Shown in pieces: positions 1-63,675 of a stretch of 64,000 nt of DNA. A model generated the notes under the pieces. That model was given only the letters and a program-made list of their open reading frames with translations, ran no database searches and had not been told where the DNA came from. Source of the stretch: a virus; IMG/VR virus record IMGVR_UViG_3300013132_000033, positions 1-64,000 of that record; one strand, given 5' to 3'. The position numbers and the translations under genes were made by a program. Positions within the stretch are counted from its first letter, which is position 1. Each line of letters begins with the position of its first letter.

Positions 1-1
1 A

Positions 2-151: not shown

Positions 152-177
152 TTTAAACTTTAAACAATTTTAAGACT

Positions 178-465: not shown

Positions 466-483
466 GTTTAACTTTAATTAATC

Positions 484-1110: not shown

Positions 1111-1113
1111 ACT

Positions 1114-2619: not shown

Positions 2620-2624
2620 AAATA

Positions 2625-3634: not shown

Positions 3635-3640
3635 ATTATT

Positions 3641-3676
3641 AGGGGAGGTTCCAATATGGAATACTCCCCTTTTTTA
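3641..3676 (+). terminator. intrinsic terminator
   Basis: AGGGGAG...CTCCCCT stem followed by a T run, just after the stop at 3634. Confidence 0.75.
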
Positions 3677-3701
3677 TTATACTCAAATTAACAACTTACC
3701 A

Positions 3702-4223: not shown

Positions 4224-4449
4224 AGTAAAGTGTTTATTCTTTAATAAACTATTAGATTTATTAGCTGATGGTTTATATGGAATTGAATGCGATTCAACAG
4301 CATCCTTAGATATGGTTAAAAATATAATTAACCATTATGATTTTGGATGTTTTTCGGATGACTTTATTCGTAACTTAGTTATTGATGAAGGATCTACCGT
4401 AACACTTTGTGTCAATAAAGATTACTTTACTGCTGCAGAAACGGATTAA
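4195..4449 (+). CDS. hypothetical protein
   Basis: ORF track; fills the gap between co-oriented genes. Confidence 0.5.
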   Translation: MCILPADVTKVKCLFFNKLLDLLADGLYGIECDSTASLDMVKNIINHYDFGCFSDDFIRNLVIDEGSTVTLCVNKDYFTAAETD

Positions 4450-4489
4450 AATTAATCTTTTATCTTTGCGGTAAACTTAACTTAAAATT

Positions 4490-6913: not shown

Positions 6914-7401
6914 TGAAAAGAGACAAGATGATTACGGAAAAAGATATTTATTATTTTTATCCGTATAAAAAAAATCCTCCACTTACAGGTAAAACCGTAC
7001 CACAACCATACGTCAAAAAAAATGATGTTTCAGATCATAAATATGCTATTACATATGACGTATGGTTGTCTATTATTAATGATTATATTGATGAAGTATC
7101 ACAACTTTTATTTAAAGGTAAAATAGTAAAAACACCTAATTTCTTAGGTACATTTCAACTTAAAAAATATCAACTTAAAAAACTGGTACATTGGGGGAAA
7201 ACTAGACAAGAAGGTAAAATGGTATATATACAAGATTCTGATTTATATAGGATTATTATAAAGTGGAATCGTAATTATAAAATATGTAAATTTAAAAATG
7301 CAGAACATTGGAAGATTAGAATGAACTCTGCGTTTGCTGCTAAAATATATCAAAAAAGTTTAGAAGATCCTGATTATCAGTATAGTATAATAGATGTATG
7401 A
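6913..7401 (+). CDS. crAss-like IHF/HU-like protein
   Basis: Basic; 'GKIVKTPNFLGTFQLKK' resembles the IHF/HU beta-arm entry; conserved position in the crAss tail module. Confidence 0.5.
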   Translation: MKRDKMITEKDIYYFYPYKKNPPLTGKTVPQPYVKKNDVSDHKYAITYDVWLSIINDYIDEVSQLLFKGKIVKTPNFLGTFQLKKYQLKKLVHWGKTRQEGKMVYIQDSDLYRIIIKWNRNYKICKFKNAEHWKIRMNSAFAAKIYQKSLEDPDYQYSIIDV

Positions 7402-8216
7402 CTAGATATACTTCAATTCGTTCAGCATTGAGGTTTATACCTCGCAATTTATATGATAGGTCTACAGATCTTGATTTTCTAACATGGATGTTAGATGGAT
7501 TTAGACAATTAGACTTACCTGTTACTTATGATTCTAAAATTAAATTTATTGAAATTATTAATAATAGAGCAGAATTACCAAAAGATATAAAAGAAATAAA
7601 ACTATTAACATACATGTTTAAAAATCCTAATCAAGAAGATGTAGATGATTTATCAGGTTGTATTACAAATCCTGTAGAAACTACAACAACAGAATCAGAT
7701 ACTAATAATATATGTCAATATACATTAGCATATAAACAGTTTTTAGATTCAAAATATTATAATAATAATTTCATGCCTTTACAATATAAAGGTAATTATG
7801 CTGATAGTATCTTGTGTACTAAATGCCCCAATAGATTTTCACCATGTCAAAATTACTTTTCGGTAGATAAAAATAATATACTACATACTAATATAAAAGA
7901 TGGTTTTTTATGTGTAGATTATTTTACTGAAATGAAAGATGATACTGGTGATTTTTTAATTCCTGATCTTACAGAATTAAAACAATATTTAGCGTACTAT
8001 GCTATGGCTAAACATTGGGAAGAAAGAGCTATGGTTAAAGAACAATCAGCAGATAGAATTGCTCAAGATATGTATATAAAAGCTGAAATATTCTTTAAAA
8101 AAATTCGGGGTATACTTATAATGAGAGGTATTAACCCGAACGATATTACAAATATGCAATTTGATGGATTTAATCAATGGATAAAAATACCTGAAAGATA
8201 TGTCTTTGCTAGATAA
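7398..8216 (+). CDS. putative tail tubular / ring protein
   Basis: Immediately upstream of the stabilisation protein; typical size; synteny. Confidence 0.55.
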   Translation: MTRYTSIRSALRFIPRNLYDRSTDLDFLTWMLDGFRQLDLPVTYDSKIKFIEIINNRAELPKDIKEIKLLTYMFKNPNQEDVDDLSGCITNPVETTTTESDTNNICQYTLAYKQFLDSKYYNNNFMPLQYKGNYADSILCTKCPNRFSPCQNYFSVDKNNILHTNIKDGFLCVDYFTEMKDDTGDFLIPDLTELKQYLAYYAMAKHWEERAMVKEQSADRIAQDMYIKAEIFFKKIRGILIMRGINPNDITNMQFDGFNQWIKIPERYVFAR

Positions 8217-11200
8217 ACAATCAGCCACTCAATTACAAAATGGTTTAAATAAAGATTTAACATTTCAACGTGAAGGAGATGTTACTTATGCTTTAAACGC
8301 AATTCGAGATAGTCATGATGGTGGTAAGTATGATTATCAATCAGAACCAGGTAATGAATTTGCAGCAGTAATTCCTGGTAGTACTATAGTAGGTATAGTA
8401 TATGGTCAAGATGACGAAGTATATTTATTTGCTACAGACGGTAATGATTGTACAATAGGTATATTTAGAAAAAATAAATATACAGAACATGTACGATCCA
8501 GCTTTTTTAATTGGAGTGTAGATAATCCTATTACAGGGCAATCACGAGTTAAAAATGGATGCGAGAGATTAGTATATTGGTGTGATGCTTTAAATAATGA
8601 TTATTTTTATAATTTTGATAAACCTGAAGAATTTAAAACAGGTAATGCATTTGATGTAAACAAGTTTAAACTTGTACCATCTATACTTCCTATAAAAATG
8701 GATTTATTATCTGTTAATAATGGTGGTGGTTTATTACCATTAGGTTCTTATTATTTTCAAGCTGAAATACTTGATGAAAATCAAAATTCATTATACACAA
8801 GTGATGTATCACCTCAAGTAGTTATTTATGATAACTCGACGGCTGAAGATTACAATCGTATAAACGGCGGATTAAATATAGCTCAATATTCAGCAGAATC
8901 TGGGGGGGTACCATTAACTACTAAATCTATATCTTTAAAGTTTTATAATTTAAACCCGGCGTTTAAATTTATTAGAGTCAATGTATTTAGGAAAATTGCA
9001 GGTTCTAATCAATTAGATGGTCATACGGTAGCTGAATTAATATCTATTGGTAACGGTACAGTTAACTGGACGTATAGAGGTTTAAATACAGCGGCTGGAG
9101 ATTTTCCTATTGATGTAAACGAAAAATTTATAGATAATGCTAGATATGATTCTGCTTATGTAATGGAACAAGTGCAAGGTAGATTATTAAGAGCTAACTT
9201 AAAACAAGATGTAAGGGATTATTCTGAATATCAAAACTATGTTAGTAAAATTACAGCTAAATGGGTAGCTAAAGAAGTTGAAGCTAATAATATAGAATCT
9301 GTAGGTAATCCTAAAAATCCTGAAACATATTGGGTAGGTCGTGGATTCCAAGGTGATGAAGTATATATGTTTGGTGTTCAGTTTGTACACAAAGATGGTT
9401 CTATATCACCAGTATTTCCATTAATAGGTAAAACAAGTATTCCAAGTGATACATTTTTATATACAGTAGTTGCTAATACAGTTACATTACCACAATTCAA
9501 TGAAGTATGGTTATCTGATGTTGAACATTTAGGTTATCAAATAGGAAATCAAGTACCATCATGGAAATTTAAAAATGGAGCTATTATCACATCATCTCAA
9601 ACAGTAACACATCCTTATTCTTACGAAGGTGATTTTGGTTTTTATGAAACTGAAGAAACATATCCTGATATTCGAGATTGTAATAATAATTTAATATGGG
9701 GTACTGATGCAGATGATAATGTTATTACAACATCTACTAAAGTTAGATTGTTTCAATTTCCTGATAGACGTATTGTAAGTCATACAAGTATAGACGCTAA
9801 ATATTTAATACCATTAGGTGTAAAATTTAGTGATATAACATATCCTAACAGTGATGTTGTAGGTCATAAATTTGTTTATGCAGAACGTACAGAATTTGAT
9901 AAGACTGTAGTAGATTCTGGATGGGCAGTTAAACCAGAAGTATTAGAAATTGGTATTAAATTAGGTCAATATAGAGTAGGTGGTTCAGCAGAATTTACAA
10001 AAGCTGACCCTTTTAAAAATAGTACTATTGATAGTACTTTTTTACGATACATATCTTCTAACGTATTATATAAACAAAGATTAGGAGCATTTGATTATTA
10101 TAAATTAAATCGTGCTCATAGATTTGATTCTGGGTTAATATCTACTAACGGTGATTTAGATTATGCAAGAACACCATTAAAAGATGGTGGGTTCTTAGCA
10201 TCTGTTATTATGTATATGAAACAAACCAATCATGTACTTACAAGTAGATTAAATCATAAACAATTACAATCTATATTAGTAAAACCAAATACTATAACAG
10301 AAGCTCAAGGATACTTTCCTAAAATACTTGGTGAAGATTTATATACAGGTGATAGTGTTTCTAAAATAAACTATACTTTAGAAAACTCTATTTTACCAGC
10401 TCAAATTACAGATGATTGGCATCTTGGAAATAATACTCAATATGCAGTTAATAACTTTTATGCTTATAAGAAAGCTTTAGTTAACCCATACTCTAATTTT
10501 TTAGTTCGTAAGTATAAATCAATTCATCATAATTATACTACAAGTGTATTTGCGCAAGATAATGTTTATTATGGTGGTGATACTTTAATTACTGAAAATG
10601 CTAATTTTAGAGTAGCTTTTTTTTATAGGACTGCTCAAACTGCTGGTAGTTATATAATGACACCTCTATTTTGTCATCATTATGAAGAACATGATATTAA
10701 TACAGCATTACGTCATGAAGGTACTGGTGAAAACTTTAAGTATTTTAAAATGGGTGATACTGATGAAATTAATTATAATAGGTTAACTTATTATGATGGT
10801 ACAGATAGAGTATTAAATCAACGCAATAATATACAAACACTAAATGTAGAAACTGAATACTATGCTTATAATGATGATTATACAGTTGATAATGTAGAAA
10901 AAAGTAAAGTACCAATACCATCTTCATTTGATTATTGCTCAGATTGTTTATATAACTATCCTAACAGAATTATATTTAGTCCTAAATCATTTGATGAAGA
11001 AGCGTATGATTTATATCGAATATCAAAAATAAACGATTATATAGATATACCTGCTAGTAAAGGTAAAATAACAGGATTAAAATATATTAATAATTATTTA
11101 TTAGTACATACTGAAAATGGATTATTTATATTACAACCTAATCCTCAATCATTTGTTACTGATATTAATAATGTATATATTAGTACAGGAGATTTCTTAG

Positions 11201-12408
11201 GAATACCTCCACAAGAAATAAACGAAAATGATTCTGGTTATGCTGGCATGCAAACTAAACTTGATTGTGTTAGTACACCATACGGACATATTTGGGTAGA
11301 TCAAAAACGCGGTCAAATATTTAACTTTAATACTAAAATAGAAGAACTTACTAATCCTGCAAGTGGAATGTCATCTTGGTTTAAACACGAATTACCATCT
11401 AAATTAGATGCTGAATTTTATAGAGTTCATGGCATTCCGTATCCATATCATTCAGTTTATAATGGTCAATTAGGTATAGGATTAAATCTTGTTTATGATC
11501 CTAGATATAAACGATTGTTAATTACCAAAACTGATTATGGATTTAGATCTATTGGCTATCAAGGATTTAAAACAAAAGCACAATTTGATGCTGAGTATCA
11601 AGGTATATATTTTGATTTTGAAGAAGAAAAATTTAAATACAGACAATCATCTGATGTAGTATCTAGTTATTTATATGGTGTTTATCCTATAGTTAATGAA
11701 TCATGGAATTTATCATTTTCATTTGAAACTAATTCATGGGCATCATTTCATTCATATATTCCCAGAGTTTCTTTTTTTGACAGTACCCATTATTATACTT
11801 TTGAAAATAGTTTAACTGAAAGTATTGATAGTATGATATTTAATACAATATGGCGACATAGACATATTAGTAATTATCAAAAGTATTATGATATTAAACA
11901 TCAATTTGCAGTTGAATGGCAAGTATATAAACCAACTACTGAACAATTATCAACTGTACATTATGTAGGTAATACTTGGGTATGGGATGAAGTAAACTTT
12001 CAATGGATACCTTTAAATCGTACATTTGATTATGGTTTATTTTATAGTATTGATCAAAGTACTGGTAAAATACCATTAACTTTAATAGATCAAAATCAAA
12101 ATCCATATCAAAATGTAAGTTTTAACAATTCTTCAAAATATGTAATTCGCACAGATGATAATTATAAAATATCTGGTTTATATGATATGTCTACAGGAAC
12201 TCCTGTCACAATTAAACTTAAATCAAATGCTAGAACTTTTTGGGATGATATAAATGATTCAAATATAGATTTTACTAAAAGTAGTTATAACACCCAATTA
12301 TTAAAAGGTAAAGTTGTAAACTGTAGATTATACTTTTATAACTATGATGTAGACGCTAAAAAAGTTATCAATATAGTTCAAACAAATAAACTTCAATCAA
12401 TACGATGA
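8200..12408 (+). CDS. tail stabilisation / muzzle protein (crAss Tstab-like)
   Basis: 1402 aa; N-terminal GLNKD...YALNA and later 'GDEVYMFGVQFV..DGS.SPVF' and 'WASFHSY.P' motifs typical of crAss-like muzzle proteins. Confidence 0.7.
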   Translation: MSLLDKQSATQLQNGLNKDLTFQREGDVTYALNAIRDSHDGGKYDYQSEPGNEFAAVIPGSTIVGIVYGQDDEVYLFATDGNDCTIGIFRKNKYTEHVRSSFFNWSVDNPITGQSRVKNGCERLVYWCDALNNDYFYNFDKPEEFKTGNAFDVNKFKLVPSILPIKMDLLSVNNGGGLLPLGSYYFQAEILDENQNSLYTSDVSPQVVIYDNSTAEDYNRINGGLNIAQYSAESGGVPLTTKSISLKFYNLNPAFKFIRVNVFRKIAGSNQLDGHTVAELISIGNGTVNWTYRGLNTAAGDFPIDVNEKFIDNARYDSAYVMEQVQGRLLRANLKQDVRDYSEYQNYVSKITAKWVAKEVEANNIESVGNPKNPETYWVGRGFQGDEVYMFGVQFVHKDGSISPVFPLIGKTSIPSDTFLYTVVANTVTLPQFNEVWLSDVEHLGYQIGNQVPSWKFKNGAIITSSQTVTHPYSYEGDFGFYETEETYPDIRDCNNNLIWGTDADDNVITTSTKVRLFQFPDRRIVSHTSIDAKYLIPLGVKFSDITYPNSDVVGHKFVYAERTEFDKTVVDSGWAVKPEVLEIGIKLGQYRVGGSAEFTKADPFKNSTIDSTFLRYISSNVLYKQRLGAFDYYKLNRAHRFDSGLISTNGDLDYARTPLKDGGFLASVIMYMKQTNHVLTSRLNHKQLQSILVKPNTITEAQGYFPKILGEDLYTGDSVSKINYTLENSILPAQITDDWHLGNNTQYAVNNFYAYKKALVNPYSNFLVRKYKSIHHNYTTSVFAQDNVYYGGDTLITENANFRVAFFYRTAQTAGSYIMTPLFCHHYEEHDINTALRHEGTGENFKYFKMGDTDEINYNRLTYYDGTDRVLNQRNNIQTLNVETEYYAYNDDYTVDNVEKSKVPIPSSFDYCSDCLYNYPNRIIFSPKSFDEEAYDLYRISKINDYIDIPASKGKITGLKYINNYLLVHTENGLFILQPNPQSFVTDINNVYISTGDFLGIPPQEINENDSGYAGMQTKLDCVSTPYGHIWVDQKRGQIFNFNTKIEELTNPASGMSSWFKHELPSKLDAEFYRVHGIPYPYHSVYNGQLGIGLNLVYDPRYKRLLITKTDYGFRSIGYQGFKTKAQFDAEYQGIYFDFEEEKFKYRQSSDVVSSYLYGVYPIVNESWNLSFSFETNSWASFHSYIPRVSFFDSTHYYTFENSLTESIDSMIFNTIWRHRHISNYQKYYDIKHQFAVEWQVYKPTTEQLSTVHYVGNTWVWDEVNFQWIPLNRTFDYGLFYSIDQSTGKIPLTLIDQNQNPYQNVSFNNSSKYVIRTDDNYKISGLYDMSTGTPVTIKLKSNARTFWDDINDSNIDFTKSSYNTQLLKGKVVNCRLYFYNYDVDAKKVINIVQTNKLQSIR

Positions 12409-14822
12409 AAAAGCAAGAAGCAAATTTAAAAAAAGCTTTGCAATCTTTATGGGCAGAACCTACTGCAGATGTATATCCTAAAAAATATAGTACTGGTGGT
12501 CAGATTCTTTCCACAATGGCTTCATTAATTCCTGGATATGGTGCTGTTATATCACCACTTATCTCAATAGCAGATCAGTATCGAGATAAAACAATAGCTG
12601 ATAAAAAAGCTAAACAAGATATGTTAAATTCAAGACCTGTTCAAATGAATACTGATATATATGGTCAAATGGCATCAGGTGGTTATACTACATCTAAATT
12701 TAAACAATATCGTACTGGTGGTCATGCTAGTGGTAACGATCAATTAATTTCTGAAAATGGTGTGCCATCTAATAATAATGCAGTCGCTTCTGTACAGAAT
12801 AATGAAAATGCTTATACTAATAATAAACAAACTTACATTTATTCTGATGTATTAGTTAATCCTGAAACTGGAAATACATTTAATGTAGATTCTGCAAAAG
12901 CTGTTAAAAAATATAAATATGCTGATACAGATCCTGAACAAAAACGTGCATTAGATTTTACAATGAATAGGTTGTCAATGTTAAATGATACTATGCGTAA
13001 TATGAAAGATTCTGTTCAAAAAGCATTTGGTGGTCCACCGGATCCTGGTAAATCATTAATACCTACAGCTAAAATTAGTCAAGAAAGTATTTATTATCCT
13101 ATTAATATTTTTGAAAAACCTCGTGATACAACTGATCGATTGATTAGTACAATGCCTTTAGGTATAGATCCTAATGGTCTTCCATATCCTAGTATGGATG
13201 CTGATCCTAGATCTTCTTTACCTAAAACAAAATCAATAGATGAAGTAATAGCTATAGCCGCTAGTGGTACAACAAATGTTGGAGGTTGGGATGGTTCTGG
13301 TTCTAAATTCAAATCTAAAGAACGATTCAGAGAAAAAGCTGGCGGAGGACTTACTAGTGAAGATAGAGGTTCTGATAAAAAACCATATCCTTCAGTAGCA
13401 TCTAATAATTTTGCTGGAGGTAATAGGTCTTATCCTATACCAACTAAAGCAGATGCTATCGACGCTCTTAGGTTAGCTGGATTACATGGTAGGAGTGATG
13501 TACGTGCTAATGTATATGAAAAATATCCTGAACTTAAAAAAGCGTATGGTGGCAATCCATTATCTAAAATGACTAATATGGCAACAACATCTGTTGCCGA
13601 TGCGTTAGCTTTTCAAGGTCAACATAACCCTGATACTCCATTACAAGAAGCACTTGATAAAGCTGATTTATATTATCATAGTACAGATTTTAATTTATTT
13701 TCTAACGGAGAAAGAGGTTGGCAAATCCCACCTGGTATATCAACATTTCCATTAATACAACCTTGGTCAAACGTAATAACATATGGTTCAGATAATAATC
13801 AATATAAATATCAGCCTCCAGCAACGCCTTCAGCAACACAACCTGCAACACCAGTAGCAAATGTTACAACTCCAACAGTAGCTCCAACAACAAGTACAAA
13901 GACACCTGTTCTTAGTAAATCAGCTATGCCAAAATATGACGAGATATCTCCTGAAGATGCATTAAATGTAGATTTAACTAAAGAGCTAGGTTATGCTACA
14001 GTATTAGATAATCCTGTATCTGATAGATCTATTACAATGGATGAACGAGCAGGTATGGTAACTAATCCATATAAAAATGATAATGCTAAAGTTAACACGC
14101 CTTATACAGCACCGCCGGATAAAAAAAATCCGTTTAATTACAATGCTGTAGCTATGGGTTTAAAAGCTGTAGCATTAGGTAAATCAGTAGCAGATGCTTT
14201 AGAAAAACCTGTTGTAGAAAAACCAATGTTTACAGATTATAATGCTTCTGATAGACAAATGTATGGTACTAATGTAGATTATACTCAAGCACGTCAAGAT
14301 GCTATGGCAGCATCTAATTTAGCAGCTAATGTTAATAGAGCAGCTTCTTCAGGGTTTAATCAATATCAAGGAAGAATGCAATCTACATATGGCAACTTGG
14401 CAGATCAATTAGGTCAAATTAGTATGAATGAAAATCTGCAACGTAATCAACAAGCAATGCAACGTGGACAATATGAAACTGCTAAAGCAATAGATGTTAA
14501 AAATACTATGTATCAAAATAGGATTGATAACATGCAAAATATGGCTAATGCTAAACTTGCAGATCAAAAGTTATTTTCTGAACTTAGTCAAATTGGTACA
14601 GAGTTTAATCAATATCAAGGTTATAAAGAAATGTTGCAGAATAATAAAGAACTTAGTCAAGCAACTATTAATCAAGGTTTAGCTTTGATTGGTTCCAATT
14701 ATGCTAATTTTGGATTTACAAAAGATTTTATAGATAAAATTAAAAGTGGTCAAGCTACTCAAAACGAATTAATTCAGTTTATAGCAACTACTGATAAAGT
14801 TAAACAAAATCAATCTGGATAA
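12405..14822 (+). CDS. putative virion cargo (ejection) protein
   Basis: 805 aa; low-complexity P/T/A segments, Q/N-rich helical C-terminus, repeated KxxGG motifs; follows the muzzle gene. Confidence 0.55.
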   Translation: MKKQEANLKKALQSLWAEPTADVYPKKYSTGGQILSTMASLIPGYGAVISPLISIADQYRDKTIADKKAKQDMLNSRPVQMNTDIYGQMASGGYTTSKFKQYRTGGHASGNDQLISENGVPSNNNAVASVQNNENAYTNNKQTYIYSDVLVNPETGNTFNVDSAKAVKKYKYADTDPEQKRALDFTMNRLSMLNDTMRNMKDSVQKAFGGPPDPGKSLIPTAKISQESIYYPINIFEKPRDTTDRLISTMPLGIDPNGLPYPSMDADPRSSLPKTKSIDEVIAIAASGTTNVGGWDGSGSKFKSKERFREKAGGGLTSEDRGSDKKPYPSVASNNFAGGNRSYPIPTKADAIDALRLAGLHGRSDVRANVYEKYPELKKAYGGNPLSKMTNMATTSVADALAFQGQHNPDTPLQEALDKADLYYHSTDFNLFSNGERGWQIPPGISTFPLIQPWSNVITYGSDNNQYKYQPPATPSATQPATPVANVTTPTVAPTTSTKTPVLSKSAMPKYDEISPEDALNVDLTKELGYATVLDNPVSDRSITMDERAGMVTNPYKNDNAKVNTPYTAPPDKKNPFNYNAVAMGLKAVALGKSVADALEKPVVEKPMFTDYNASDRQMYGTNVDYTQARQDAMAASNLAANVNRAASSGFNQYQGRMQSTYGNLADQLGQISMNENLQRNQQAMQRGQYETAKAIDVKNTMYQNRIDNMQNMANAKLADQKLFSELSQIGTEFNQYQGYKEMLQNNKELSQATINQGLALIGSNYANFGFTKDFIDKIKSGQATQNELIQFIATTDKVKQNQSG

Positions 14823-14824
14823 TT

Positions 14825-17488
14825 ATGGCTATAAGTAGATTTGATAAATTTACACCACGCGATTATAATATGGAGTGGTACATGCCAAAAGAGTTCATAC
14901 CGGACTTTGAAGCATGGAATACAATGTTAGCTGGTAAACAATCTAAATATGATACTGCTGTTGCACTATCTCAAAAGTTACCTAAACATTTAGCACATCG
15001 TGTAGACCTAGCTGGTCAATATAAACAAAAAACTGATCAAGCTATTAATGATATTTCATCAGCTTATACTAAAGATATTTCTGCAGGAGATAGAATGCTT
15101 CGTGATTATGGGTTAAATATGAATCGAGATTGGCAAGCTGGAGGTTTGGCATATGAGTTAGAACAAGAAGCTGCTGAGTATGCTAAAGCTCAAGAAGAAA
15201 TATCAAAATATTATAAAGACGCTAAAGCTGAACATAGTGCTAATAAAAACTTGGCAATGTATAAATTGCAAGAAGCTGCTAAAAAAGATTTTGGTTACGA
15301 TCCTAATACAGGATTATATACACGAGCAAGTATTTCAGCAGATACTACATCATTTGTAGATATTATGGAAGAAGCTCAGAAAGTTATAAAAGAAATTAAA
15401 GATTCCGGTAATACAACTATTACAAATTTAAGTCCTGCATGGTTATTGAAAATTAAACAAGAAGGTGTAAGTCCAGAAACTATTAAAGGTGTTGCTCAAG
15501 AATTATTAAAACAACCAAAGTATGCTCAACAATTAGCTATTGAACAATGGGATAAAAAACGTAGATATACACCGGACCAGTTAACTGAAATGGAAACTAA
15601 TTATAGAAAAAATGCTAATGATCAATTAACGACAGAAGGTGATGAGTTACTTAAAACTACAAAGAATAAAAAAGATGCTATAGCTATTCAAGAGATGTTA
15701 ACTAAAGAAGGTTTTTATACAGCTACTATTGATGGTAAATTTGGAAATCAAAGTAAAAAAGCTTTTAACGAATGGCTACAAAGTAAACGTGATAGTATTA
15801 ATGAAGTAGATGCTGATACTATTATTAGTAAACAATTAATTAATAGTTACGTAGATCCTTTAGTTAAGACATATACTAGAATGAACATAGATAAAACTCC
15901 TATATTTAATAAACAATGGGGAGTTGAAAGACAGATTCAAGGTCAAGCTCAAAACAATGCTATATTTGCACAAACACTAATGCGTCCTGAACCTGGTGAA
16001 TATTTGGTAAGTCCCGGTGCTGCAAGACCTATGGATAAAATAGATAAAATGACAGCTACTGCAAAAACTACTTATGAAGATGCTAAAAAAACATTTAATA
16101 TGGTAGTTAGTAAATCTCCTATAGCCGGTCAAAATTATGCTCCTCATGAAATTAATATGATTACAATGGCTAGAATGGAATCTAAAACTCCTCAAGAATT
16201 TCAAAGTAAATTAGCATCGTACGGAGTTATGGTTCCAAATGTTCAAGCAACATATGATTGGTATTCAAGTCCTGAAGCTGTAAATTTAAATACTGCTTAT
16301 AAAGCAATGTCTTCTGCAGGACATCAGTTACAAACTTATACTAACTCTCAAGAAGCAATGTTAAATCAGTTTATTAAAACTGAAGAAGGTAAAAAATATT
16401 TTAATAATTTAAAAAAGAAAAAAGATTTTAGTACACTTAGTGATGCAGATCTTATTAAAATGATTGCTACAAATAATTTAAAAGCAAATGATAATACAGG
16501 TGGTGTAAGATATATTGCTACACCTTCTGGTATGATACCAACTCAAAGTGATATATCAGGCGCAGTAAGTGATTTAAAAAGAGGAATTGATAAATGGGTG
16601 CAAAACAATCCCGATGCGTTACCTGTATCTTTACGTGGGTATGCTATAACTGCAACTAAAGGTGTAGGTGCAACATTAACTAAAGATATTATAACAGATT
16701 TACAATCAGGTAATACTGCAGGATATTCTTACGGAGATATGCCGTTACAATTTACAACTGCTGATGGTAAAAAAATAAATACTTCTGATTTAGATGCTAA
16801 TAGTTTAAATGTTAGAATAACTAGTGATGCTAAAGGTGTAACATATTATATCAGTGGTAAAGATAATGATAAAAATTCTGTTACAGGTGTTGCAACTGCA
16901 CCAGTTCAACATAATGGTAGACTAGCCAATATTTCAAAAGATATGTTATTAAATGCTAAACAAACTGGAGATAAGTATTTAGAAAACTTAGCGGCTCAAA
17001 TTTATAATAATACTAAAGGTGATAATGCTTCAAGATATGCTTCAGAAAATATGTTAATACTTGATAATAAAAATTCAGGTAGTTTAAATGAAGTTATCAA
17101 CCCTGCTGTTAAAGATCGAATAGTTACGTTTGGAGGAAATCCAAATGTAAAAGGTCGTAAGGTTGGTGGTGAGATAAGTATGAATGGTGAAACTTTTCAA
17201 AAATATAAAATTAAAAATGAAGTTGGTAAAGATGTATTTATGATGACGCGTCAAGTTGCAGATAAAAATGGTAATATATATTACGCACCTATATTAAATG
17301 AAAGTGGAGGTTTGTATTATGATAACTCTTCTGATGCAGAAATGCCATTAATAAAAAGTGAAATGATGAGTCAATTAAATGTTGAATATAAAACTGGTAG
17401 TTTTAAAACACCAAATATGACTGAACAACAAGCTGCAGCTTTATTAGCGCATATGAATTCAAATGATATTCTTAACCAAAATGATTAA
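14825..17488 (+). CDS. putative virion cargo protein with internal peptidoglycan-binding domain
   Basis: 887 aa; IQEMLTKEGFYTATIDGKFGNQSKKAF matches the PG_binding_1 consensus (LQxxL...G..DGxFGxxT..A). Confidence 0.6.
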   Translation: MAISRFDKFTPRDYNMEWYMPKEFIPDFEAWNTMLAGKQSKYDTAVALSQKLPKHLAHRVDLAGQYKQKTDQAINDISSAYTKDISAGDRMLRDYGLNMNRDWQAGGLAYELEQEAAEYAKAQEEISKYYKDAKAEHSANKNLAMYKLQEAAKKDFGYDPNTGLYTRASISADTTSFVDIMEEAQKVIKEIKDSGNTTITNLSPAWLLKIKQEGVSPETIKGVAQELLKQPKYAQQLAIEQWDKKRRYTPDQLTEMETNYRKNANDQLTTEGDELLKTTKNKKDAIAIQEMLTKEGFYTATIDGKFGNQSKKAFNEWLQSKRDSINEVDADTIISKQLINSYVDPLVKTYTRMNIDKTPIFNKQWGVERQIQGQAQNNAIFAQTLMRPEPGEYLVSPGAARPMDKIDKMTATAKTTYEDAKKTFNMVVSKSPIAGQNYAPHEINMITMARMESKTPQEFQSKLASYGVMVPNVQATYDWYSSPEAVNLNTAYKAMSSAGHQLQTYTNSQEAMLNQFIKTEEGKKYFNNLKKKKDFSTLSDADLIKMIATNNLKANDNTGGVRYIATPSGMIPTQSDISGAVSDLKRGIDKWVQNNPDALPVSLRGYAITATKGVGATLTKDIITDLQSGNTAGYSYGDMPLQFTTADGKKINTSDLDANSLNVRITSDAKGVTYYISGKDNDKNSVTGVATAPVQHNGRLANISKDMLLNAKQTGDKYLENLAAQIYNNTKGDNASRYASENMLILDNKNSGSLNEVINPAVKDRIVTFGGNPNVKGRKVGGEISMNGETFQKYKIKNEVGKDVFMMTRQVADKNGNIYYAPILNESGGLYYDNSSDAEMPLIKSEMMSQLNVEYKTGSFKTPNMTEQQAAALLAHMNSNDILNQND

Positions 17489-17491
17489 TAT

Positions 17492-20400
17492 ATGGCTAAA
17501 GTAGTAGGTACTGCTGCAGGAACATCTTATGATCCATTAGCAGCTTCACAACAAGAATTACAAAATTTAGGGTTAGCTCCTACAAAACATAATACTGAAT
17601 TTTCATTGACATCTGAAACAACAGGTTTAAATGAATTTAATAATATTGATTTAGGTCAATACGATAAACCACCATCTTTATATAGTAACGATGCTCAAGC
17701 GTCTAGTATATTAAATGAAATGCGTGCTCAAAATCAAGGTGCTGGAGAACAATTTTTAAAAGGTGTAGGTCGTGTTGCAAGTACAGCAATAACAGAATTA
17801 TTTAAAGTTCCTGGTTATTTAGGTGGAGCTTTAGGCTCTAGTTTAATGGAAGGAGACTTTATTGAAAATACTGTAGATAATGCTTGGGTAAATGCTTTTC
17901 AAAGTTTAGATGAAAACATTAAAGAAAGTATTCCAATATATCTTACAAAAGAAGTTGAAGAAGGTGGTATAGGTAGAAAGCTTATGTCATCTGCATGGTG
18001 GTCTACTACTGGTGCAGACGGGATAGGCTTTTTACTATCCATGTATGCTCCGGGTAAAGTAATTGGTGCTTTAGGATCAGGATTAAAATTAGCTAGAGGT
18101 GTTGAAGCCATTGCTAATAGTTCTAAACTAGGATCTAAACTTGCAAGACTTTCTGGATTAGTAGATAATGCTGCAACATTTACAGAACAAGGTTTAAAAG
18201 TAACTGGTAAAGGTGTAGGTAAATTAGAATCGTTAGCTACTGTAGCTACTAATACTTTTGTAGAATCTGCTGCTGAAGCTGCTAATACATTTGATAATGT
18301 AAAAGAAGCTTACATGCGCAACAATCCTAATGCTACTGAAGAAGAAGCTAAGAAAGTTGCTGGAGATCAAGCTGCTGCTGTAATGAAAGCAAATATTGCA
18401 GTATTAGCAATATCTAATTATTTTGATGAACTTACTTTATTTAACGGATTTGGTAAAGGAGATGCAGCTATTAAAAATAGTATATTTGGTAAACTTACTA
18501 AAGATGGTATAATTGATTTTACAGATTTGAGTAAGATTGAAAAATACGGATTTAGACAATGGGCATCTAAAGAATTACCAGCTAAAGTAGCAGCATCTTT
18601 TGCTAAAGAAGGTTTCTTTGAAGAAGGACTTCAAACTAAAATTCAACAACATTATGAAAAGAAAGCTGCTGGAGAAACTAGTGAAAATTTCTTTGATGAT
18701 GTAATTGGTAATTATTTCCATTCTTTATTAAGTGATATTGAAATGCAAGAAGCAGTTGTTCTTGGGGGTATACTTGGAGGAGGTGCTGGTGTTATAGGTT
18801 CTTATTCAGATATGAAAAATACTGAGAGATTTCTCAGAGGTGGTGAAGCTTATACACCTAACTTCTTTGGTAAAATGTTAGGTCGTAAACCTAGAGAAGC
18901 TACAAAAGGATTTTTAGATTTAGCTAATGAAAACTTTATACAATCCACAAGAAGTTTAAAAGATATAGCTGAACTTGAAGATGATGGCAGGATTAAATTT
19001 CAAACTAAACAAAAAGAAATAATAGATCCTGTTACTGGTAAAACAGTAATTCAAGATGTTCAAGTACCAGTAATTAATCAAGATAAACTTAAAAACTTAA
19101 TGGAAGAGAAAAGTAGTATGTTACAATTAGTAACTCTACATAGTATTCTTTCACAAGCTGGTGAAGTTGAACAAGCTGAAGTATATAAACAATTAATTGA
19201 CTACGCAAGATTTACACCGTTTATTCAACAAGAAGGTGGGTATGAAGTATTAGAAGCTTTTATTAAATCAGGTAAATTAACTGAATTAGAAGCTAATCAA
19301 ATATTAGAAAATGAAAATAGAACAATAACTGATGCTGAAAAACAAGATATAACTAATGGTATGTTAAAGCAAGCTAAGTTATTTAAAGATGTTTATGATG
19401 AAGTTAACAGAACATTTATTCCTGAAAAGTATGTTAAACCTGATGATAAAGAACAATATAATGCCTGGAAACAAACTGCATTTAATCGTAAACTACAAAA
19501 CTTGTTAGCGTCAAAGAACTTGACACAACAAATGTTTAATATTAAAAATAAGTATGGAGATTTTGAATTAACAGAAGATGATTATAATACATTAACTCCA
19601 GACGAAGCTTTAAATAAAAAACGTTCTAAAGATGTTTATGATAATCTTGCTAAACAATGGCAAGATGCTAAAGAAACTTATTTAAAACTTTCTGATGCAA
19701 ATGGTTTACGAAATGATTACGAAGAATTTAAAAAAGAGAAAGAAGAAGAGTTAACAAAAGTAGGTAAAGAGTTAAAAGACTCTACACAAGAAGCTTTAGA
19801 TGATAATACAGCTACAAGTAAATTTAAAGAAACGCTTCAATATTCTGGTTATAATGTAACAGATTCTACTAATGGTTTTAATGCTGCTGGCTTAGATGGT
19901 AATCAAATTGTACTAGAAAGAAATAGCGATAATAAAAATGTTATATTAACACCTATTAATAATAATGGTGTTATTGATTATGTGATGGTAAATGATGACG
20001 GCACATCAACATTAGTAACTAAAAATGGTATATTTAGTAAATCATTTTTAGATAGCATGTCTGTTGTAATTGCAGATAATGCTAAAGAACAAATAGAAAA
20101 AGCTAAAATACAACAGTTAAAAAATGAAAAACTTAGGACATTAGAACTGTTACAAGAATTTCAAAAACAAAATTACAAAGAAGGTAAAGAAAGATTACAA
20201 GAATTAGATAAATTGTTTGCTAGTACTTATGAAGAAATTTCAAAATATAACGATCAGTTAAACGATGCTGTAAATGGTGTTAATGCAAGAAAAGCTGGAA
20301 ATAGTACCGCTACTAATCAAGCAGTAGATAGAGCAGTAATTGAAGGACTTCTTAATCAAGCTTTTGAACGATATAATGCTTTAAATAATGAAAGACAATT

Positions 20401-58452: not shown

Positions 58453-58590
58453 TTATTTTTTAAGTTTTTTAACTAAACGAAAGCCAAGAAAAGTAAAACG
58501 ATGATTTTTCTCATAGTAAACACGTACATTTATTTTACAAACTTCAATAACAGTACCATAAGAACCACCATAAATAAAAATATTATCCAT
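58453..58590 (-). CDS. array unit 12 (45 aa)
   Basis: MDNIFIYGGSYGTVIEVCKINVRVYYEKNHRFTFLGFRLVKKLKK*; 8-nt overlap with unit 11. Confidence 0.75.
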   Translation of the reverse strand: MDNIFIYGGSYGTVIEVCKINVRVYYEKNHRFTFLGFRLVKKLKK

Positions 58591-58723
58591 GTTTTAATGT
58601 TTTAATTAAACGGAACCCCAAGCCGCCGTAGCGGTAGTCGGGCGTGTCGCCGCTGCGATCCGCCACCCGGCAGTACTGCGGGTAGCCGTACCACGACCCG
58701 CCGCGAATATACTTATAATTCAT
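58583..58723 (-). CDS. array unit 11 (46 aa), very GC-rich core
   Basis: MNYKYIRGGSWYGYPQYCRVADRSGDTPDYRYGGLGFRLIKTLKHG*; TAATG overlap. Confidence 0.8.
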   Translation of the reverse strand: MNYKYIRGGSWYGYPQYCRVADRSGDTPDYRYGGLGFRLIKTLKHG

Positions 58724-58857
58724 TATTTCAGTTTTTTAATTAAACGAAATCCTAAGACTTTGTAGCGGTGATCCAGCTCGTCTAAGTACTGAAAATCGGG
58801 CAAGCAACCGATTGCTAGGCTACCATAGCTACCACCACGAATATACTTATAATTCAT
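58723..58857 (-). CDS. array unit 10 (44 aa)
   Basis: MNYKYIRGGSYGSLAIGCLPDFQYLDELDHRYKVLGFRLIKKLK*; ATGA overlap. Confidence 0.75.
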   Translation of the reverse strand: MNYKYIRGGSYGSLAIGCLPDFQYLDELDHRYKVLGFRLIKKLK

Positions 58858-58994
58858 GTTTTAACTGTTTTAATAAGTCTAAACCCAACATAATTACAAC
58901 AATATTGTTGATGACTCCACAATCGATCTGATGATTTACACGCTAGATTATTACTAATCCACGATCCACCATAATTAATAAGATAATTTTTCAT
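58854..58994 (-). CDS. array unit 9 (46 aa)
   Basis: MKNYLINYGGSWISNNLACKSSDRLWSHQQYCCNYVGFRLIKTVKT*; ATGA overlap. Confidence 0.75.
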   Translation of the reverse strand: MKNYLINYGGSWISNNLACKSSDRLWSHQQYCCNYVGFRLIKTVKT

Positions 58995-59131
58995 GATTTT
59001 AATGATTTAGTTAAACGAAAGCCAATGTATTGTGTCCTGAATGACGGTCGATAAGTTGTGCGAAAATCAGTACGGCAAAATTTTAGATTAAAATTATCCC
59101 AACAACCTCCAAAAATAATAAATGTATTCAT
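58991..59131 (-). CDS. array unit 8 (46 aa)
   Basis: MNTFIIFGGCWDNFNLKFCRTDFRTTYRPSFRTQYIGFRLTKSLKS*; ATGA overlap. Confidence 0.75.
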   Translation of the reverse strand: MNTFIIFGGCWDNFNLKFCRTDFRTTYRPSFRTQYIGFRLTKSLKS

Positions 59132-59271
59132 GATTTTAATATTTTAATTAATCGAAATCCAACATACAAATATTTGTAAATTGCTTTATTTCTAACATGT
59201 TCTGATGAACGATCAACTATTAAACAATTTTGATGATAAACACCTGTTCCTTTTATAGTTATTTGGTTCAT
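59128..59271 (-). CDS. array unit 7 (47 aa), AT-rich and diverged
   Basis: MNQITIKGTGVYHQNCLIVDRSSEHVRNKAIYKYLYVGFRLIKILKS*; ATGA overlap. Confidence 0.7.
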   Translation of the reverse strand: MNQITIKGTGVYHQNCLIVDRSSEHVRNKAIYKYLYVGFRLIKILKS

Positions 59272-59408
59272 AATTTTAATGATTTAGTTAAACGAAATCC
59301 TAAAGCGTTAGCATGATAATCCAATATACTAAGATTGCGATAAACTGTAAGACAACCGTAGTTAAAACTGCTACATCCACCGCCGCGAATGTTAAAATAT
59401 TTTTACAT
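59268..59408 (-). pseudogene. array unit 6 (ATG immediately followed by TAA)
   Basis: ATG(59408)-TAA then KYFNIRGGGCSSFNYGCLTVYRNLSILDYHANALGFRLTKSLKL*. Confidence 0.65.
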
Positions 59409-59539
59409 TTTAATGTTTTAATTAGACGAAAACCAACTATGTTGCTACGACACTCATGTACACCGATGTCACGATATAATACTCGACAACGCTCGGGAAC
59501 GTTAATCCAGCTACCGCTACAAAGAATAAAGGTATTCAT
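59300..59539 (-). CDS. array unit 5 (stop codon lost; reads through out of frame into unit 6)
   Basis: MNTFILCSGSWINVPERCRVLYRDIGVHECRSNIVGFRLIKTLK followed by a 35-aa extension. Confidence 0.65.
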   Translation of the reverse strand: MNTFILCSGSWINVPERCRVLYRDIGVHECRSNIVGFRLIKTLKCKNILTFAAVDVAVLTTVVLQFIAILVYWIIMLTL

Positions 59540-59673
59540 TATTTCAGTTTTTTAATTAAACGGAAGCCAATGCTGAAGTTGCGGAAGTCCGAATCGTCCC
59601 AGCCCCGAAACGCTACCCGGCAGTACTCCGGGGAGCGGTTCCAACTACCTCCAACAATATTAAAGTATTTCAT
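59539..59673 (-). CDS. array unit 4 (44 aa), GC-rich core
   Basis: MKYFNIVGGSWNRSPEYCRVAFRGWDDSDFRNFSIGFRLIKKLK*; TAATG overlap. Confidence 0.8.
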   Translation of the reverse strand: MKYFNIVGGSWNRSPEYCRVAFRGWDDSDFRNFSIGFRLIKKLK

Positions 59674-59807
59674 TATTTTAATGTTTTAATTAAGCGAAAG
59701 CCCAAAAAGTTGAAGCGGCGGTCCGGCCCGCTGATGAAGCGATCCGATGCGCGGCAGAACCTGGCAGTGTTGAGCCAGCCGCCGCTAAAAACTACAAATG
59801 TATTCAT
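59673..59807 (-). CDS. array unit 3 (44 aa), GC-rich core
   Basis: MNTFVVFSGGWLNTARFCRASDRFISGPDRRFNFLGFRLIKTLK*; TAATG overlap. Confidence 0.8.
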   Translation of the reverse strand: MNTFVVFSGGWLNTARFCRASDRFISGPDRRFNFLGFRLIKTLK

Positions 59808-59941
59808 TATTTTAATGTTTTAATTAAGCGAAAGCCGAGATGGCTGAAGCGGTAGTCCGGCCCGTAGAAGTTGCGATACGAAGCGCAGCAGTACACGGCA
59901 TTGATGACCCAGCTGCCGCCTTTTATAATAAAGTATTTCAT
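59807..59941 (-). CDS. array unit 2 (44 aa), GC-rich core
   Basis: MKYFIIKGGSWVINAVYCCASYRNFYGPDYRFSHLGFRLIKTLK*; TAATG overlap. Confidence 0.8.
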   Translation of the reverse strand: MKYFIIKGGSWVINAVYCCASYRNFYGPDYRFSHLGFRLIKTLK

Positions 59942-60072
59942 TATTTAAGTTTTTTGATTAATCGAAAACCAAGATATTTTTCGCAATATCTTAATTTATC
60001 ATAACTAGATATTGTTATACGGCAGTTTGTAATACTATTATAACTACCGCCTTTAATTATAATTTGTTTCAT
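59941..60072 (-). CDS. array unit 1 (43 aa)
   Basis: MKQIIIKGGSYNSITNCRITISSYDKLRYCEKYLGFRLIKKLK*. Confidence 0.75.
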   Translation of the reverse strand: MKQIIIKGGSYNSITNCRITISSYDKLRYCEKYLGFRLIKKLK

Positions 60073-60093
60073 TGTCAAGTAGTGTTAAAATTT

Positions 60094-60123
60094 AAAAAGG
60101 GGGCTGCTGTTAACAACCCCCTT
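60094..60123 (-). terminator. intrinsic terminator-like hairpin between the FGE gene and the array
   Basis: Minus strand AAGGGGGTTGTT-AAC-AGCAGCCCCCTTTTT. Confidence 0.7.
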
Positions 60124-60750: not shown

Positions 60751-61688
60751 TTAAAATAGTGAATGTTTTGGTTTAAATTTAACTACTTCGTTATTTGCTT
60801 GAACGATGTAGTATTGATAATTAATATTATAATCTTTTGGATTAGTACTTTGAACTTGATTTAATAATTGACTATAATATGATTTTCCTTTTTGAGGATG
60901 CGCATTGAGATATTCATACGATCCTTTTGAATATACTTTTTTAAATATCATACCTGTTTTAGATATGATATATCTTATTGTCTTTGGTAATTTAGTTACA
61001 GTATTATTATTTGTGATACCTATAAAAGAACTATCTTGTTTAGCCCTAACGCCTATACAATAATCAAAAATATTATCACCATTAATAATTGTATCTTCTA
61101 CAGGTGTGTTATACAAAAAATAATTATAAATAGCTTTTCTAACTATTAATTCAGATTTATTTTTATGTAACGGTAAATTTTCAAACTCAAAACTACCTTT
61201 ACATTTTGCTTTACCATTAGTATAAATTGCAATATAATTGTTGACATCTCGAATAATCATTTTACTATAATAAGCGTATTCTAATTGAAGTCTAGTTATA
61301 GACTCCCATTGTTTACAAATATTATAATATTCTGATTCATGTTGTTTTCTAAGTTTACAAGTTAAACCGTCTGTATTTATTTGAATAAGTGTCAAATCAG
61401 GTATTTCCATTAATTGTTCAGCTAACATTGTTAACATTAACTGACCATTAATAGTTGTAGATAATGTATATTTAAAATCACGTAACCAAGAAGTTTCTTC
61501 ATTACTTTTACCGTAGACACTATTAGCAGCTTCTTTATAACCGGCAACAATAACAAAATCTCCATTTTTACCTTTTGCTTTTTCACGTAATCTTACATCT
61601 ACAATATCTTCTTTGTAAACTCTACTAAATTCTTCTCCTAAATGTTCAGGATATAAATTATTTACTGTAGCTATACTTGGGTATAGTG
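60751..61688 (-). CDS. polB: family B DNA polymerase, exon 2
   Basis: Open frame upstream of track ORF 60751-61437 gives (S)LYPS, KEAANSVYGK (motif B) and NTDG (motif C). Confidence 0.9.
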
Positions 61689-61706: not shown

Positions 61707-62501
61707 CTATTCAGTTTGGACTTTATCATCAATTAAAACCTTATTCCACCAATATCCATACATACTTGGTTTTTCACCACTACATACTGCATAAATATTG
61801 TGTCGTTTGTAATCAGGGTTTTGCTCTAACAATTCATAAACGGTATTCCATCTTTTTATTAAAGTTTGTTTATCTTTAGTATATTGATCTATATAATATT
61901 TAGTTATTTTTTGAGATTGCTTTAATATATCCTGTTTTTTAATTTCAGGATTATTTTCATATTTTTGTTTTCTAGTATATACACCTTTTACTTGAATTTC
62001 ATATGGAACTTTTTTTCTATTACCTTCTTTAAAAGTTTTTAATATCTTTTCTGACATTATTTTCTTTTGTTCTTCTGTCCATTTATTATTAAAATTTGGA
62101 TTGAGTTCTCCTTTCATTCTTTTTTTTAATAATTCTCTTGTTTTTTCATGAACAAAAGATTGGGAAGAAGAATCTTGTCTAAGATTATATCCATAATTTA
62201 AATCAGTAGTATTGTAATACTTCATCCAATATAATTCTCTGTCTTTAATATTATTTTGAAAATTTTCTGAATGAATATCTATTTCTTCTAAAATTTCATA
62301 TATAAAATTATTTTTTCCATATTTATGCCAAGAATTAATTAAATATCTATTACAATCTTTAGATTTACTAGTTAACCCGCAAATATGATTTGCAATTCTA
62401 TTATTAATATTAATTGATTTTCCAATATACCTTTTTCCGTTTATTATATTGATAATGCAATAAATTCCCGATTTGTTTTTAAGTTGTTTGTTTATCTTCA
62501 T
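61707..62501 (-). CDS. GIY-YIG homing endonuclease (intron-encoded)
   Basis: SGIYCI...YIGKS...R...E...GYN; C-terminal NUMOD-like DNA-binding region. Confidence 0.9.
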   Translation of the reverse strand: MKINKQLKNKSGIYCIINIINGKRYIGKSININNRIANHICGLTSKSKDCNRYLINSWHKYGKNNFIYEILEEIDIHSENFQNNIKDRELYWMKYYNTTDLNYGYNLRQDSSSQSFVHEKTRELLKKRMKGELNPNFNNKWTEEQKKIMSEKILKTFKEGNRKKVPYEIQVKGVYTRKQKYENNPEIKKQDILKQSQKITKYYIDQYTKDKQTLIKRWNTVYELLEQNPDYKRHNIYAVCSGEKPSMYGYWWNKVLIDDKVQTE

Positions 62502-62552: not shown

Positions 62553-62780
62553 TATTTTAACAACTTTAACAAAACTTTAACGTTTTAATGCTTCCTGTTA
62601 AGTCTCTGAACCTTATTCTCATATTTTTGTGAGAATCTTGGCTGCGGATTGACCAATACTTTCTCTTTTTACTATACTCAATTGATTAGATTGACCACTA
62701 TATACATCACTGTCATAGTTTAGTAAGAAAGTCTCTAAGGTTATTCCCGCAATTTAAGAAGTTTTAGTTGCGCCACTTTA

Positions 62781-63675
62781 ACGCAACATCGGCATCAAGA
62801 ATTATCCAATCATTGTCAGCATTTACAATTTCAGTATTTACACTACCATGTATACCGCCTTTACCATAATCAAATTGAAATCCTTTATAAATAAAAGATT
62901 TATTAAATTTTTCTGTTGGTTCAATATTTTTATCTTTAAACCAATTTAATAAACCTTGTAATTCTATATTTTTAAATTGTATATACGGAAAAAGTATATC
63001 TTTTACATATACATTTGTACGTATAGTTTGTTTTTTACTAATTTCTTTTTTATTAGCTTTAACTGCTTTACAGTATAAATCTAACATTAATTCTGATCCT
63101 ATTTTACTATTACTAGCATTTATAAAATTTATACCATATTTGCTAGTTAAACTTATTCTTAACTGTAATTCTTTTTCATACAGTTTAAATAATTGATCTG
63201 TAGCATTTACATCATTAATACAATATTTTATAGTAGCATCAGCTTCTTCTCTTGAATTAACATGACCATGATAAGGCATATCTTCAAGATTTGGCCAATC
63301 AACCATAAATTCACACCATTTTAAACTTACCATTCTGTTTTTATTATCAAGATGTAATATCTTGTAAATATCAACATTAAATATAGTTCGTTTGTATATA
63401 GGAACAATTATTTCTTCTTGTTCAATTATTCTTACTGTATATTCATGAATTTGTTTAGCAGTTAACTTTCTTAATTTTAACAGTTCGATAATTTGACCAT
63501 CAAAATTTAAATTGTTATATCCGCGTAAAGAATTAACAGTTTTTAAAAAAGCTACTAATTCATTATACTCATTTTTCCAATCACTTATTTCAAAGATTTT
63601 ATAATTATCTTCATTTTTAAATACAGCACAAAAGAAATTAGGTAGAGTTTCTACATCATAAGTCCAATTTGCCAT
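62781..63675 (-). CDS. polB: family B DNA polymerase, exon 1 (3'-5' exonuclease domain and start of motif A)
   Basis: YDVE (ExoI), GYNNLNFD (ExoII), YCINDV (ExoIII), GGIHG, DADVA; spliced product 610 aa. Confidence 0.9.

Follow-up and report, generated by a model that had tools for sequence, protein, structure and literature searches.

A phage array of stand-alone mini-genes with GC-rich cores that fit the templates of bacterial DGRs

In Neisseria (pilE/pilS) and in Borrelia (vlsE), a tandem store of alternative variable segments lies beside a single constant part. DGRs have been regarded as closed systems that diversify genes of their own genome. Cellular DGRs have been described that diversify the sensors of "conflict systems" (Dore et al. 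2024, PMC10907252). It has also been reported that DGR components act in trans on other replicons, and a model that involves ssDNA annealing and the replication fork has been proposed for this activity (PMC12875486; PMC5758913; PMC10907252); in the Bordetella phage BPP-1, GC14, the IMH and a stem-loop matter for efficient homing (PMC12875486). In the literature, we found no paper on arrays of mini-genes that carry variable regions (VRs) or on a virus with targets that fit a DGR of its host.

Here, we analyze a phage locus with targets that fit the templates of cellular DGRs. The locus belongs to the virus record IMGVR_UViG_3300013132_000033 (99,040 bp, linear, 30% GC, estimated to be ~90% complete), and the window, i.e., the whole stretch of DNA that was analyzed, comprises the first 64 kb of this record (64,000 nucleotides). 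A scaffold gene and an array of mini-genes are located on the minus strand within the replication module, between a split family-B DNA polymerase and the ribonucleotide reductase gene (Table 1). Immediately upstream of the scaffold gene, the polymerase and homing-endonuclease genes are arranged in a manner suggestive of an intron or a split gene. The size of the phage (99 kb), its AT-richness and the split family-B polymerase all fit a crAss-like phage, and we provisionally describe it as such; among core genes, the support for this assignment comes solely from the sequence comparison of the ribonucleotide reductase, the only gene that was compared (the capsid and RNAP were left out), which is 44-46% identical to the homologs from crAss001-group phages and has a cyanophage protein as the top match (50%). 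No DNA match to the phage was detected among the INPHARED phages, and no close relative was found in IMG/VR when it was queried with the scaffold, P0129, the ribonucleotide reductase, a pattern for the tandem junctions and patterns for the core classes; these queries returned only ordinary full-length FGE genes or nothing, and there was no match for the core-class patterns. A metagenome scan yielded only chance matches, among the matches listed, with L133 being an unrelated repeat. A search for a spacer-type link to a host, in which positions 1-20000 of the window were compared with 61 Saprospiraceae genomes, produced only short low-complexity or chance matches and no repeat arrays.

Table 1. 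Features of the scaffold-array locus and its surroundings (positions in the window)
Feature	Position	Strand	Remarks
Sak4-like single-strand annealing protein (SSAP), 266 aa	51167-51967	-	phrog_124, E 2e-21; ~7 kb from the array, same replication module
Unit 12, 45 aa, AT-rich, last unit	58453..58590	-	directly upstream of the ribonucleotide reductase gene; exact protein on 4 JGI + Logan contigs
Unit 11, 46 aa, GC-rich core 58610-58705	58583..58723	-	PF03781 match; fits the TR on G002:C476
Unit 10, 44 aa, intermediate GC	58723..58857	-	5' flank same as in unit 11, core unrelated
Unit 9, 46 aa, AT-rich	58854..58994	-	ORF
Unit 8, 46 aa, AT-rich	58991..59131	-	ORF
Unit 7, 47 aa, AT-rich, framework partly lost	59128..59271	-	exact protein on 3 contigs
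Unit 6, broken	59271..59407	-	stop right after the ATG; the unit 5 readthrough crosses in another frame
Unit 5, intermediate-GC core	59405..59539	-	stop lost, giving a 79-aa ORF, 59300-59539
Unit 4, 44 aa, GC-rich core 59560-59646	59539..59673	-	fits the TR on G001:C173
Unit 3, 44 aa, GC-rich core 59694-59786	59673..59807	-	82% identity over 92 nt to G001:C205:10939-11030
Unit 2, 44 aa, GC-rich core 59828-59920	59807..59941	-	PF03781 positions 214-255; fixed codons common to unit 3 and the G001:C205 VR
Unit 1, 43 aa, AT-rich core	59941..60072	-	ORF; exact protein called on independent Logan contigs
Terminator-like hairpin + T-run	60097..60123	-	12-bp stem, 6 GC pairs; between the scaffold gene and the array
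Scaffold gene, 202 aa	60130..60738	-	FGE-sulfatase/C-type-lectin fold without the last, VR-bearing segment
Family-B DNA polymerase, two ORFs with a GIY-YIG/NUMOD3 homing-endonuclease gene between them	60751-61437, 61707-62501, 62764-63675	-	both polymerase ORFs match phrog_1252

The scaffold protein matches the Pfam family PF03781 (102.8 bits, E = 3e-29) over profile positions 5-194 of 255 only. The array that lies directly downstream of the scaffold gene (58453-60078, minus strand) consists of 12 tandem units of 132-144 nt, which are ORFs of 43-47 aa, each with its own ATG and with a stop codon that overlaps the next start (unit 6 is broken). These mini-ORFs match positions 214-255 of the same profile, i.e., the GGSW...C...R...GFR segment that bears the VR in the DGR targets of this fold; unit 11 scores 24.4 bits, above the cut-off of 23.3 bits, and units 2, 3 and 4 score below the cut-off at the same profile positions. 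The PF03781 domain is not encoded here on one polypeptide: one part of it lies in the scaffold ORF and the other in the mini-ORFs, and the scaffold is the sole other FGE match in the 99-kb record besides the mini-genes. Truncated relatives of the scaffold (202-206 aa), with 99%, 67-69% and 52% identity, cover it over its full length, have the same end point and share a conserved substitute tail. The scaffold is 50% identical to the lectin domains of the Saprospiraceae genome G001 (see below), which is no closer than to many others.

The scaffold gene and unit 1 are in frame with each other. Readthrough from the former into the latter was considered and rejected because two in-frame stops and a terminator-like hairpin intervene; the fold energy of this hairpin is -20.2 kcal/mol (z = -3.35), and none of 200 shuffled sequences folds equally well. 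An AlphaFold model of the scaffold alone has a pLDDT below 50 at residues 113-176. Given that a full-length homolog folded with the same 14-sequence alignment is equally poor in the matching region, the low pLDDT reflects the shallow alignment and is uninformative with regard to an incomplete fold.

The frames of the mini-genes are maintained, considering that 11 of the 12 units are open and that AT-rich units remain open after shuffling in just 0.7-1.5% of the trials each (the product over all units is 9e-17). In 6-7 of the 12 units, a 10-nt AT palindrome is made up of the L-I-K codons right after GFR (e.g., 58597-58606). The L-I-K residues do not vary among more than 50 mini-ORFs, unlike those of ordinary FGE proteins at this site; whether the constraint acts on the DNA or on the protein is undecided.

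A preliminary description of this DNA, made from the sequence of the window alone, pointed to GC-rich cores in an AT-rich genome, and the complete record bears this out. The core of unit 11, which coincides exactly with the interval 58610-58705 given in that description (96 nt when read on the minus strand, starting at the Arg codon that precedes GGSW and ending with that of GFR), has a GC content of 0.73, compared with the record mean of 0.30 (sd 0.065, 96-nt windows over 99,040 bp), and together with units 3 (0.62), 4 (0.60) and 2 (0.59) it makes up the four top GC peaks of the record; the highest 96-nt window outside the array reaches 0.56. The only other windows of this length with a GC content of at least 0.55 are at genome positions of about 76033, 76143, 77356 and 98848, beyond the 64-kb window. 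GC3 amounts to 0.58-0.68 in units 11, 3, 4 and 2, and to 0.08-0.19 in units 1, 7, 8, 9 and 12. The flanks are AT-rich and common to the units, including a conserved AT-rich 3' flank in all of them, and the switch in composition coincides with the GG(S)W and GFR codons, exactly as originally described. The NNC/NNY pattern that had been noticed at the presumed AAY codons is real as well: units 2 and 3 differ from each other at 10, 9 and 2 sites in codon positions 1, 2 and 3, respectively.

No DGR machinery was identified in the phage. There is no PF00078 candidate for an RT in the whole 99 kb, and a tblastn search of the record with two host DGR RTs found none, the sole matches being those of the TR-coded tail to the cassettes. 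Similarly, the 99 kb contain no PF05635 match (Avd) at E<=1, and tblastn with a host Avd detected nothing. In an ungapped scan of both strands for a template repeat (TR), no window had fewer than 15 non-A mismatches except for other units of the array. The phage cassettes do not meet the criterion of IMH-type 3' homology to the TR, this homology ending at the Arg codon of GFR, and no stem-loop was found near the 3' ends of the cassettes beyond the 10-nt AT palindrome in the flank.

By contrast with the phage itself, bacterial genomes contain templates that fit the cores. A search of one genome per prokaryotic species with a pattern derived from the fixed bases of the cores yielded 45 loci, mostly from Bacteroidota plus Thiomargarita. 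Unit 11 fits the TR of a classical DGR (RT, Avd-like gene, TR and two VRs) in an uncultured Bacteroidetes MAG (G002:C476, locus L221): relative to this TR, it is changed at 18 of the 28 A sites and at 3 of the 68 non-A sites (Fisher p = 9e-10), and the host's own VRs are changed at 13-17 of the 28 A sites and at none of the 68 non-A sites. Unit 4 fits the TR at G001:C173:59494-59585 in the MAG of Saprospiraceae bacterium 49614_E9 (G001), which accounts for the odd codons of this unit, too. Changes affect 18/31 A sites and 3/56 non-A sites in unit 4 (Fisher p = 8e-8), and 17/31 and 1/56, respectively, in the host VR. Among the 45 bacterial loci, the TRs that rank next differ from unit 4 at 15 or more non-A sites and from unit 11 at 7 or more. 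Hence units 4 and 11, with TRs in bacterial MAGs, meet the criterion for VRs, namely, mismatches to the TR that are concentrated at adenines. Unit 5 has the P-E-x-C-R-V framework in common with unit 4 and the G001:C173 TR, and appears to belong to the unit 4 class but to have drifted toward AT.

For units 2 and 3, every fixed codon is common with the VR at G001:C205:10939-11030; in the 84-nt core, unit 3 is identical to this VR at 68 positions, and the differences number 7, 7 and 2 in codon positions 1, 2 and 3, respectively. A TR of this class was not found, the G001 assembly included, and only 2 of the 401 Saprospiraceae genomes contain the class at 3 mismatches or fewer, namely, G001 and one other, with 2 mismatches. 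The mutated codons that unit 3 has in common with the host VR were considered as evidence and set aside, being, by our own estimate, about as many as expected by chance. With the C173 TR fitting unit 4 and the C205 VR fitting units 2 and 3, a single bacterial genome, G001, covers two of the three template classes. The TRs in the databases are close relatives of the donors rather than the donors themselves because 2-3 non-adenine mismatches remain. Taken together, these comparisons establish that the four GC-rich cores are DGR VRs and that their templates are cellular (Saprospiraceae/Bacteroidota) and do not reside in the phage.

The preliminary description anticipated much of this. The template that it predicted for unit 11 is near-identical to the real TR in the Bacteroidota MAG, with 3 non-adenine mismatches in 96 nt, and its count of about three source templates agrees with the three classes found, two of them in one Saprospiraceae MAG. 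The lack of an RT, Avd or A-rich template, noted there for the window, extends to the entire 99-kb record. Two outcomes had been named that would refute a capture of the cores from host DGRs: a TR and RT encoded by the phage, which are absent from the 99-kb record, and a lack of DGR-associated donors, which did not materialize, a bacterial TR or VR having been found for each of the four GC-rich cores. As an interpretation, such capture is accordingly supported, whereas the route and the actual hosts remain unproven.

A conventional phage DGR with multiple targets, once acquired from Bacteroidota, might nevertheless escape detection if the RT, Avd and several TRs resided on a helper element or in the ~10% of the genome that was not sampled. 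This possibility cannot be dismissed outright for a linear, ~90% complete record, the more so as crAss-like phages with their own DGR exist (PMC7290462) and as the conserved AT-rich 3' flank of all units could serve as a lineage-specific IMH. Still, we consider it distinctly unlikely: the three classes would need three TRs, and neither a TR nor an RT or Avd is present in the 99 kb; a cellular DGR locus with STAND or caspase targets lies within 0-3 fixed-site mismatches of each class; and the class patterns have no match in IMG/VR.

The mini-genes are not confined to this phage. More than 40 stand-alone mini-ORFs of 43-49 aa that end with GFRLIK are encoded on other phage-size contigs, with several per contig on at least 12 contigs, including those of 57, 65 and 106 kb. 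On the 57-, 65- and 3.5-kb contigs, they apparently co-occur with relatives of the scaffold, as inferred from the equal contig sizes. P0005 and P0243, which represent a fresh core of the unit 11 class in a relative, are identical at 76 of 79 positions, and the 3 differences correspond to the three template-AAC codons that adjoin GFR. We read this difference as putative partial, 3'-anchored rewriting in nature, with the reservation that it is observed at the protein level only and in a relative. In other 90% clusters of mini-ORFs, the older cores are identical between strains, and the first 2-5 and the last 3-4 residues differ. The order of cassettes also differs between strains: P0006, from a close relative, contains the same fused product as the unit 5/6 readthrough preceded by a different upstream unit, such that a unit-12-like cassette is joined to unit 6. 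The combination of identical cores, differing junctions and the P0006 arrangement suggests that cassettes are reordered by recombination in the junctions.

Several additional architectures were observed in which tip units are fused. P0254 (335 aa) consists of a whole scaffold followed by 5-6 tandem tip units of 33 aa, fused in frame; P0253 (259 aa) contains ~6 fused tip units and is encoded on the same 99,895-bp contig as a truncated scaffold of 177 aa (P0224); P0255 (511 aa) encompasses ~8 tip units fused in frame; and P0256 represents a further related architecture.

The comparison with relatives bears on two skeptical explanations of the array. If the array were a relic of old gene-end transfers followed by tandem duplication and decay, with functionless mini-ORFs and no continuing process, the GC gradient among the units, the loss of framework residues in units 1, 7 and 12, and the broken unit 6 would be naturally explained. 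Such a relic appears highly improbable, however, in view of ORFs that are open far beyond chance, of scaffold and mini-gene families that are kept across relatives with scaffolds only 52% identical, and of fresh cores that are just 2-3 fixed-site changes from living TRs, with allelic change at AAC codons. We give hardly any credence to an assembly chimera, in which bacterial VR reads would have been misjoined into the phage contig. The GC-rich units indeed were not found as called proteins in a collection of 15 billion proteins in which the AT-rich units were found, but an artifact of this kind would have had to produce four separate in-frame cores, each exactly phage-flanked and each leaving the ORF open, and some relatives from other assemblies (P0005, P0012, P0013) carry cores of the same template classes.

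In all four GC-rich cores, the 3' limit of the homology with the host is the Arg codon of GFR, and the 5' limit varies, falling after GGT in unit 4; in units 2 and 11, it lies ahead of the GG codons or of the Arg codon that precedes them. Mutagenic (DGR) homing has this polarity, with the 3' limit fixed and the 5' limit variable. The homology between the phage and the host ends inside the TR-VR homology of the host, where the repeats extend ~7-23 nt further 3' (the IMH region) and ~20 nt further 5'. Because the cassettes contain neither a host-type IMH nor a GC-rich 3' extension, any homing must be non-canonical and homology-limited.

With respect to the route of transfer, we infer either cDNA acting in trans or recombination with host VR DNA, the latter being the less likely of the two. 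Under the latter scenario, phage DNA would recombine with the VRs of chromosomal target genes via the short conserved GG(S)W/GFR stretches, the cores would inherit their DGR signature from the alleles of the host, and the host RT would never act on the phage. The homology limits do fall within the most conserved codons, and the phage has an annealing protein. The 82% identity of unit 3 to a host VR allele, with some mutated codons in common, also would be compatible with direct copying, but the number of adenine-site states that the two share is about that given by chance, by our own estimate. Furthermore, the cores match the TRs at non-A sites and equal no host VR seen, the limits of homology have the polarity of DGR homing, and the P0005/P0243 pair, with its differences restricted to three template-AAC codons at the 3' end, is more readily accounted for by repeated partial homing than by the capture of whole alleles. 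We consider the copying of host DNA unlikely, albeit worth keeping in mind.

The explanation that we favor, with a probability of roughly 0.6, is that the locus encodes a split, cassette-type FGE/CLec binder with tip cores written by a host DGR that is not encoded in the phage; the tips seem to be written by a host DGR because the GC-rich ones match bacterial templates except at adenines. Under this model, the scaffold would be the constant body without the final strand-loop segment, and each mini-gene would supply one version of this segment, the part that serves as the ligand-binding variable region in targets of DGRs. During infection, adenine-mutagenized cDNA of the host DGR would replace the core of a cassette, an inferred step for which there are no read-level data, such activity not having been shown in this phage itself. 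The proposed homing would be non-canonical and homology-limited, with a 3' anchor in the GFR codons and a 5' return crossover, variable in position, near GG(S)W. The Sak4-like SSAP of the phage may help in this replacement and can be viewed, by inference only, as a candidate helper for the annealing of foreign ssDNA into the cassettes. Once written, the cores would drift toward the AT composition of the phage, such that units 5 and 10 could be regarded as intermediate, and units 1, 7, 8, 9 and 12 as old, and the cassettes would be duplicated and reshuffled via the shared junctions. The peptides are predicted to complete the scaffold non-covalently, giving rise to a panel of ~11 binders; this step, too, is inferred, in the absence of binding data.

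The donor loci are conflict-system sensors of the kind mentioned at the outset. In G001, the neighbor of the RT on contig C173, which is 105 kb long and carries ordinary bacterial genes, is an nSTAND1 NTPase of 1066 aa with an FGE domain at its C-terminus, and contig C205 encodes a caspase+FGE target of 933 aa. In G002, too, the targets are caspase+FGE proteins, with an EAD11 neighbor, and related loci of the same composition occur in Lewinellaceae and other Saprospiraceae. On G001:C173 (L302:9476-10723, minus strand), the TR is located inside the 3' end of the RT frame; the respective 415-aa ORF matches RVT_1, and FGE-sulfatase at residues 348-412. The donor DGRs diversify STAND-NTPase-CLec and caspase-CLec proteins, the immune role of which is an untested proposal. 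Because these DGRs serve lectin sensors linked to STAND and caspase modules, the phage cassettes provide a concrete handle on that role.

It is tempting to speculate that the cassette library is employed in counter-defence, in the form of soluble decoy receptors or of dominant-negative tips that mask a phage antigen or poison the sensors, although we rate this as rather improbable. STAND/caspase sensors may detect phage components, and the phage would have host templates written onto a scaffold devoid of effectors. In that case, the array would be a weapon and, at the same time, a readable archive of the host immune repertoires that the phage has met.

Should the favored explanation be confirmed, it would follow that an infecting phage is open to writing by a hypermutation machine of its host, or that the phage turns this machine to its own use. 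A repertoire of binders would be built in a new way, from one scaffold and many separately encoded tips. What is new is not the process, DGR diversification being known, but its reach from one genome into another, where the target is split. In addition, the core sequences could be used to connect uncultured phages with their hosts. The view of the array as a record of past hosts is plausible but not demonstrated, because both the route and the identity of the MAG species as actual hosts are unproven.

Among the known systems, pilE/pilS and vlsE resemble the phage locus in that it has a store of segments beside a constant gene, with cassettes reshuffled between strains; unlike in those systems, the phage cassettes have their own starts and stops and are probably all expressed, so that conversion at an expression site is not needed. 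In the TvpA DGR of Treponema denticola, likewise, the VR is located at the C-terminus of an FGE-type CLec fold, and one DGR acts on targets remote from the RT, but, as summarized by Wu et al. (2018, PMC5758913), all of these targets are whole proteins in the genome that carries the RT and TR. In the phage BPP-1 (Mtd) and in the crAssphage LMMB (PMC7290462), a phage ligand-binding protein is likewise diversified at template adenines; these phages carry the RT, Avd and TR beside the tail-fibre target, whereas the phage studied here has none of these and its locus lies in the replication module. The closest counterparts are the cellular DGRs that act on FGE-type STAND/caspase/EAD sensors (PMC10907252; PMC7159879), which have the same template classes as the phage cores and for which adenine-specific changes and action in trans on remote targets have likewise been described (PMC10907252). 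Unlike in these cellular systems, the recipient is a virus genome without an RT or TR, and the VRs are arrayed as stand-alone 45-aa genes without IMH-type 3' homology.
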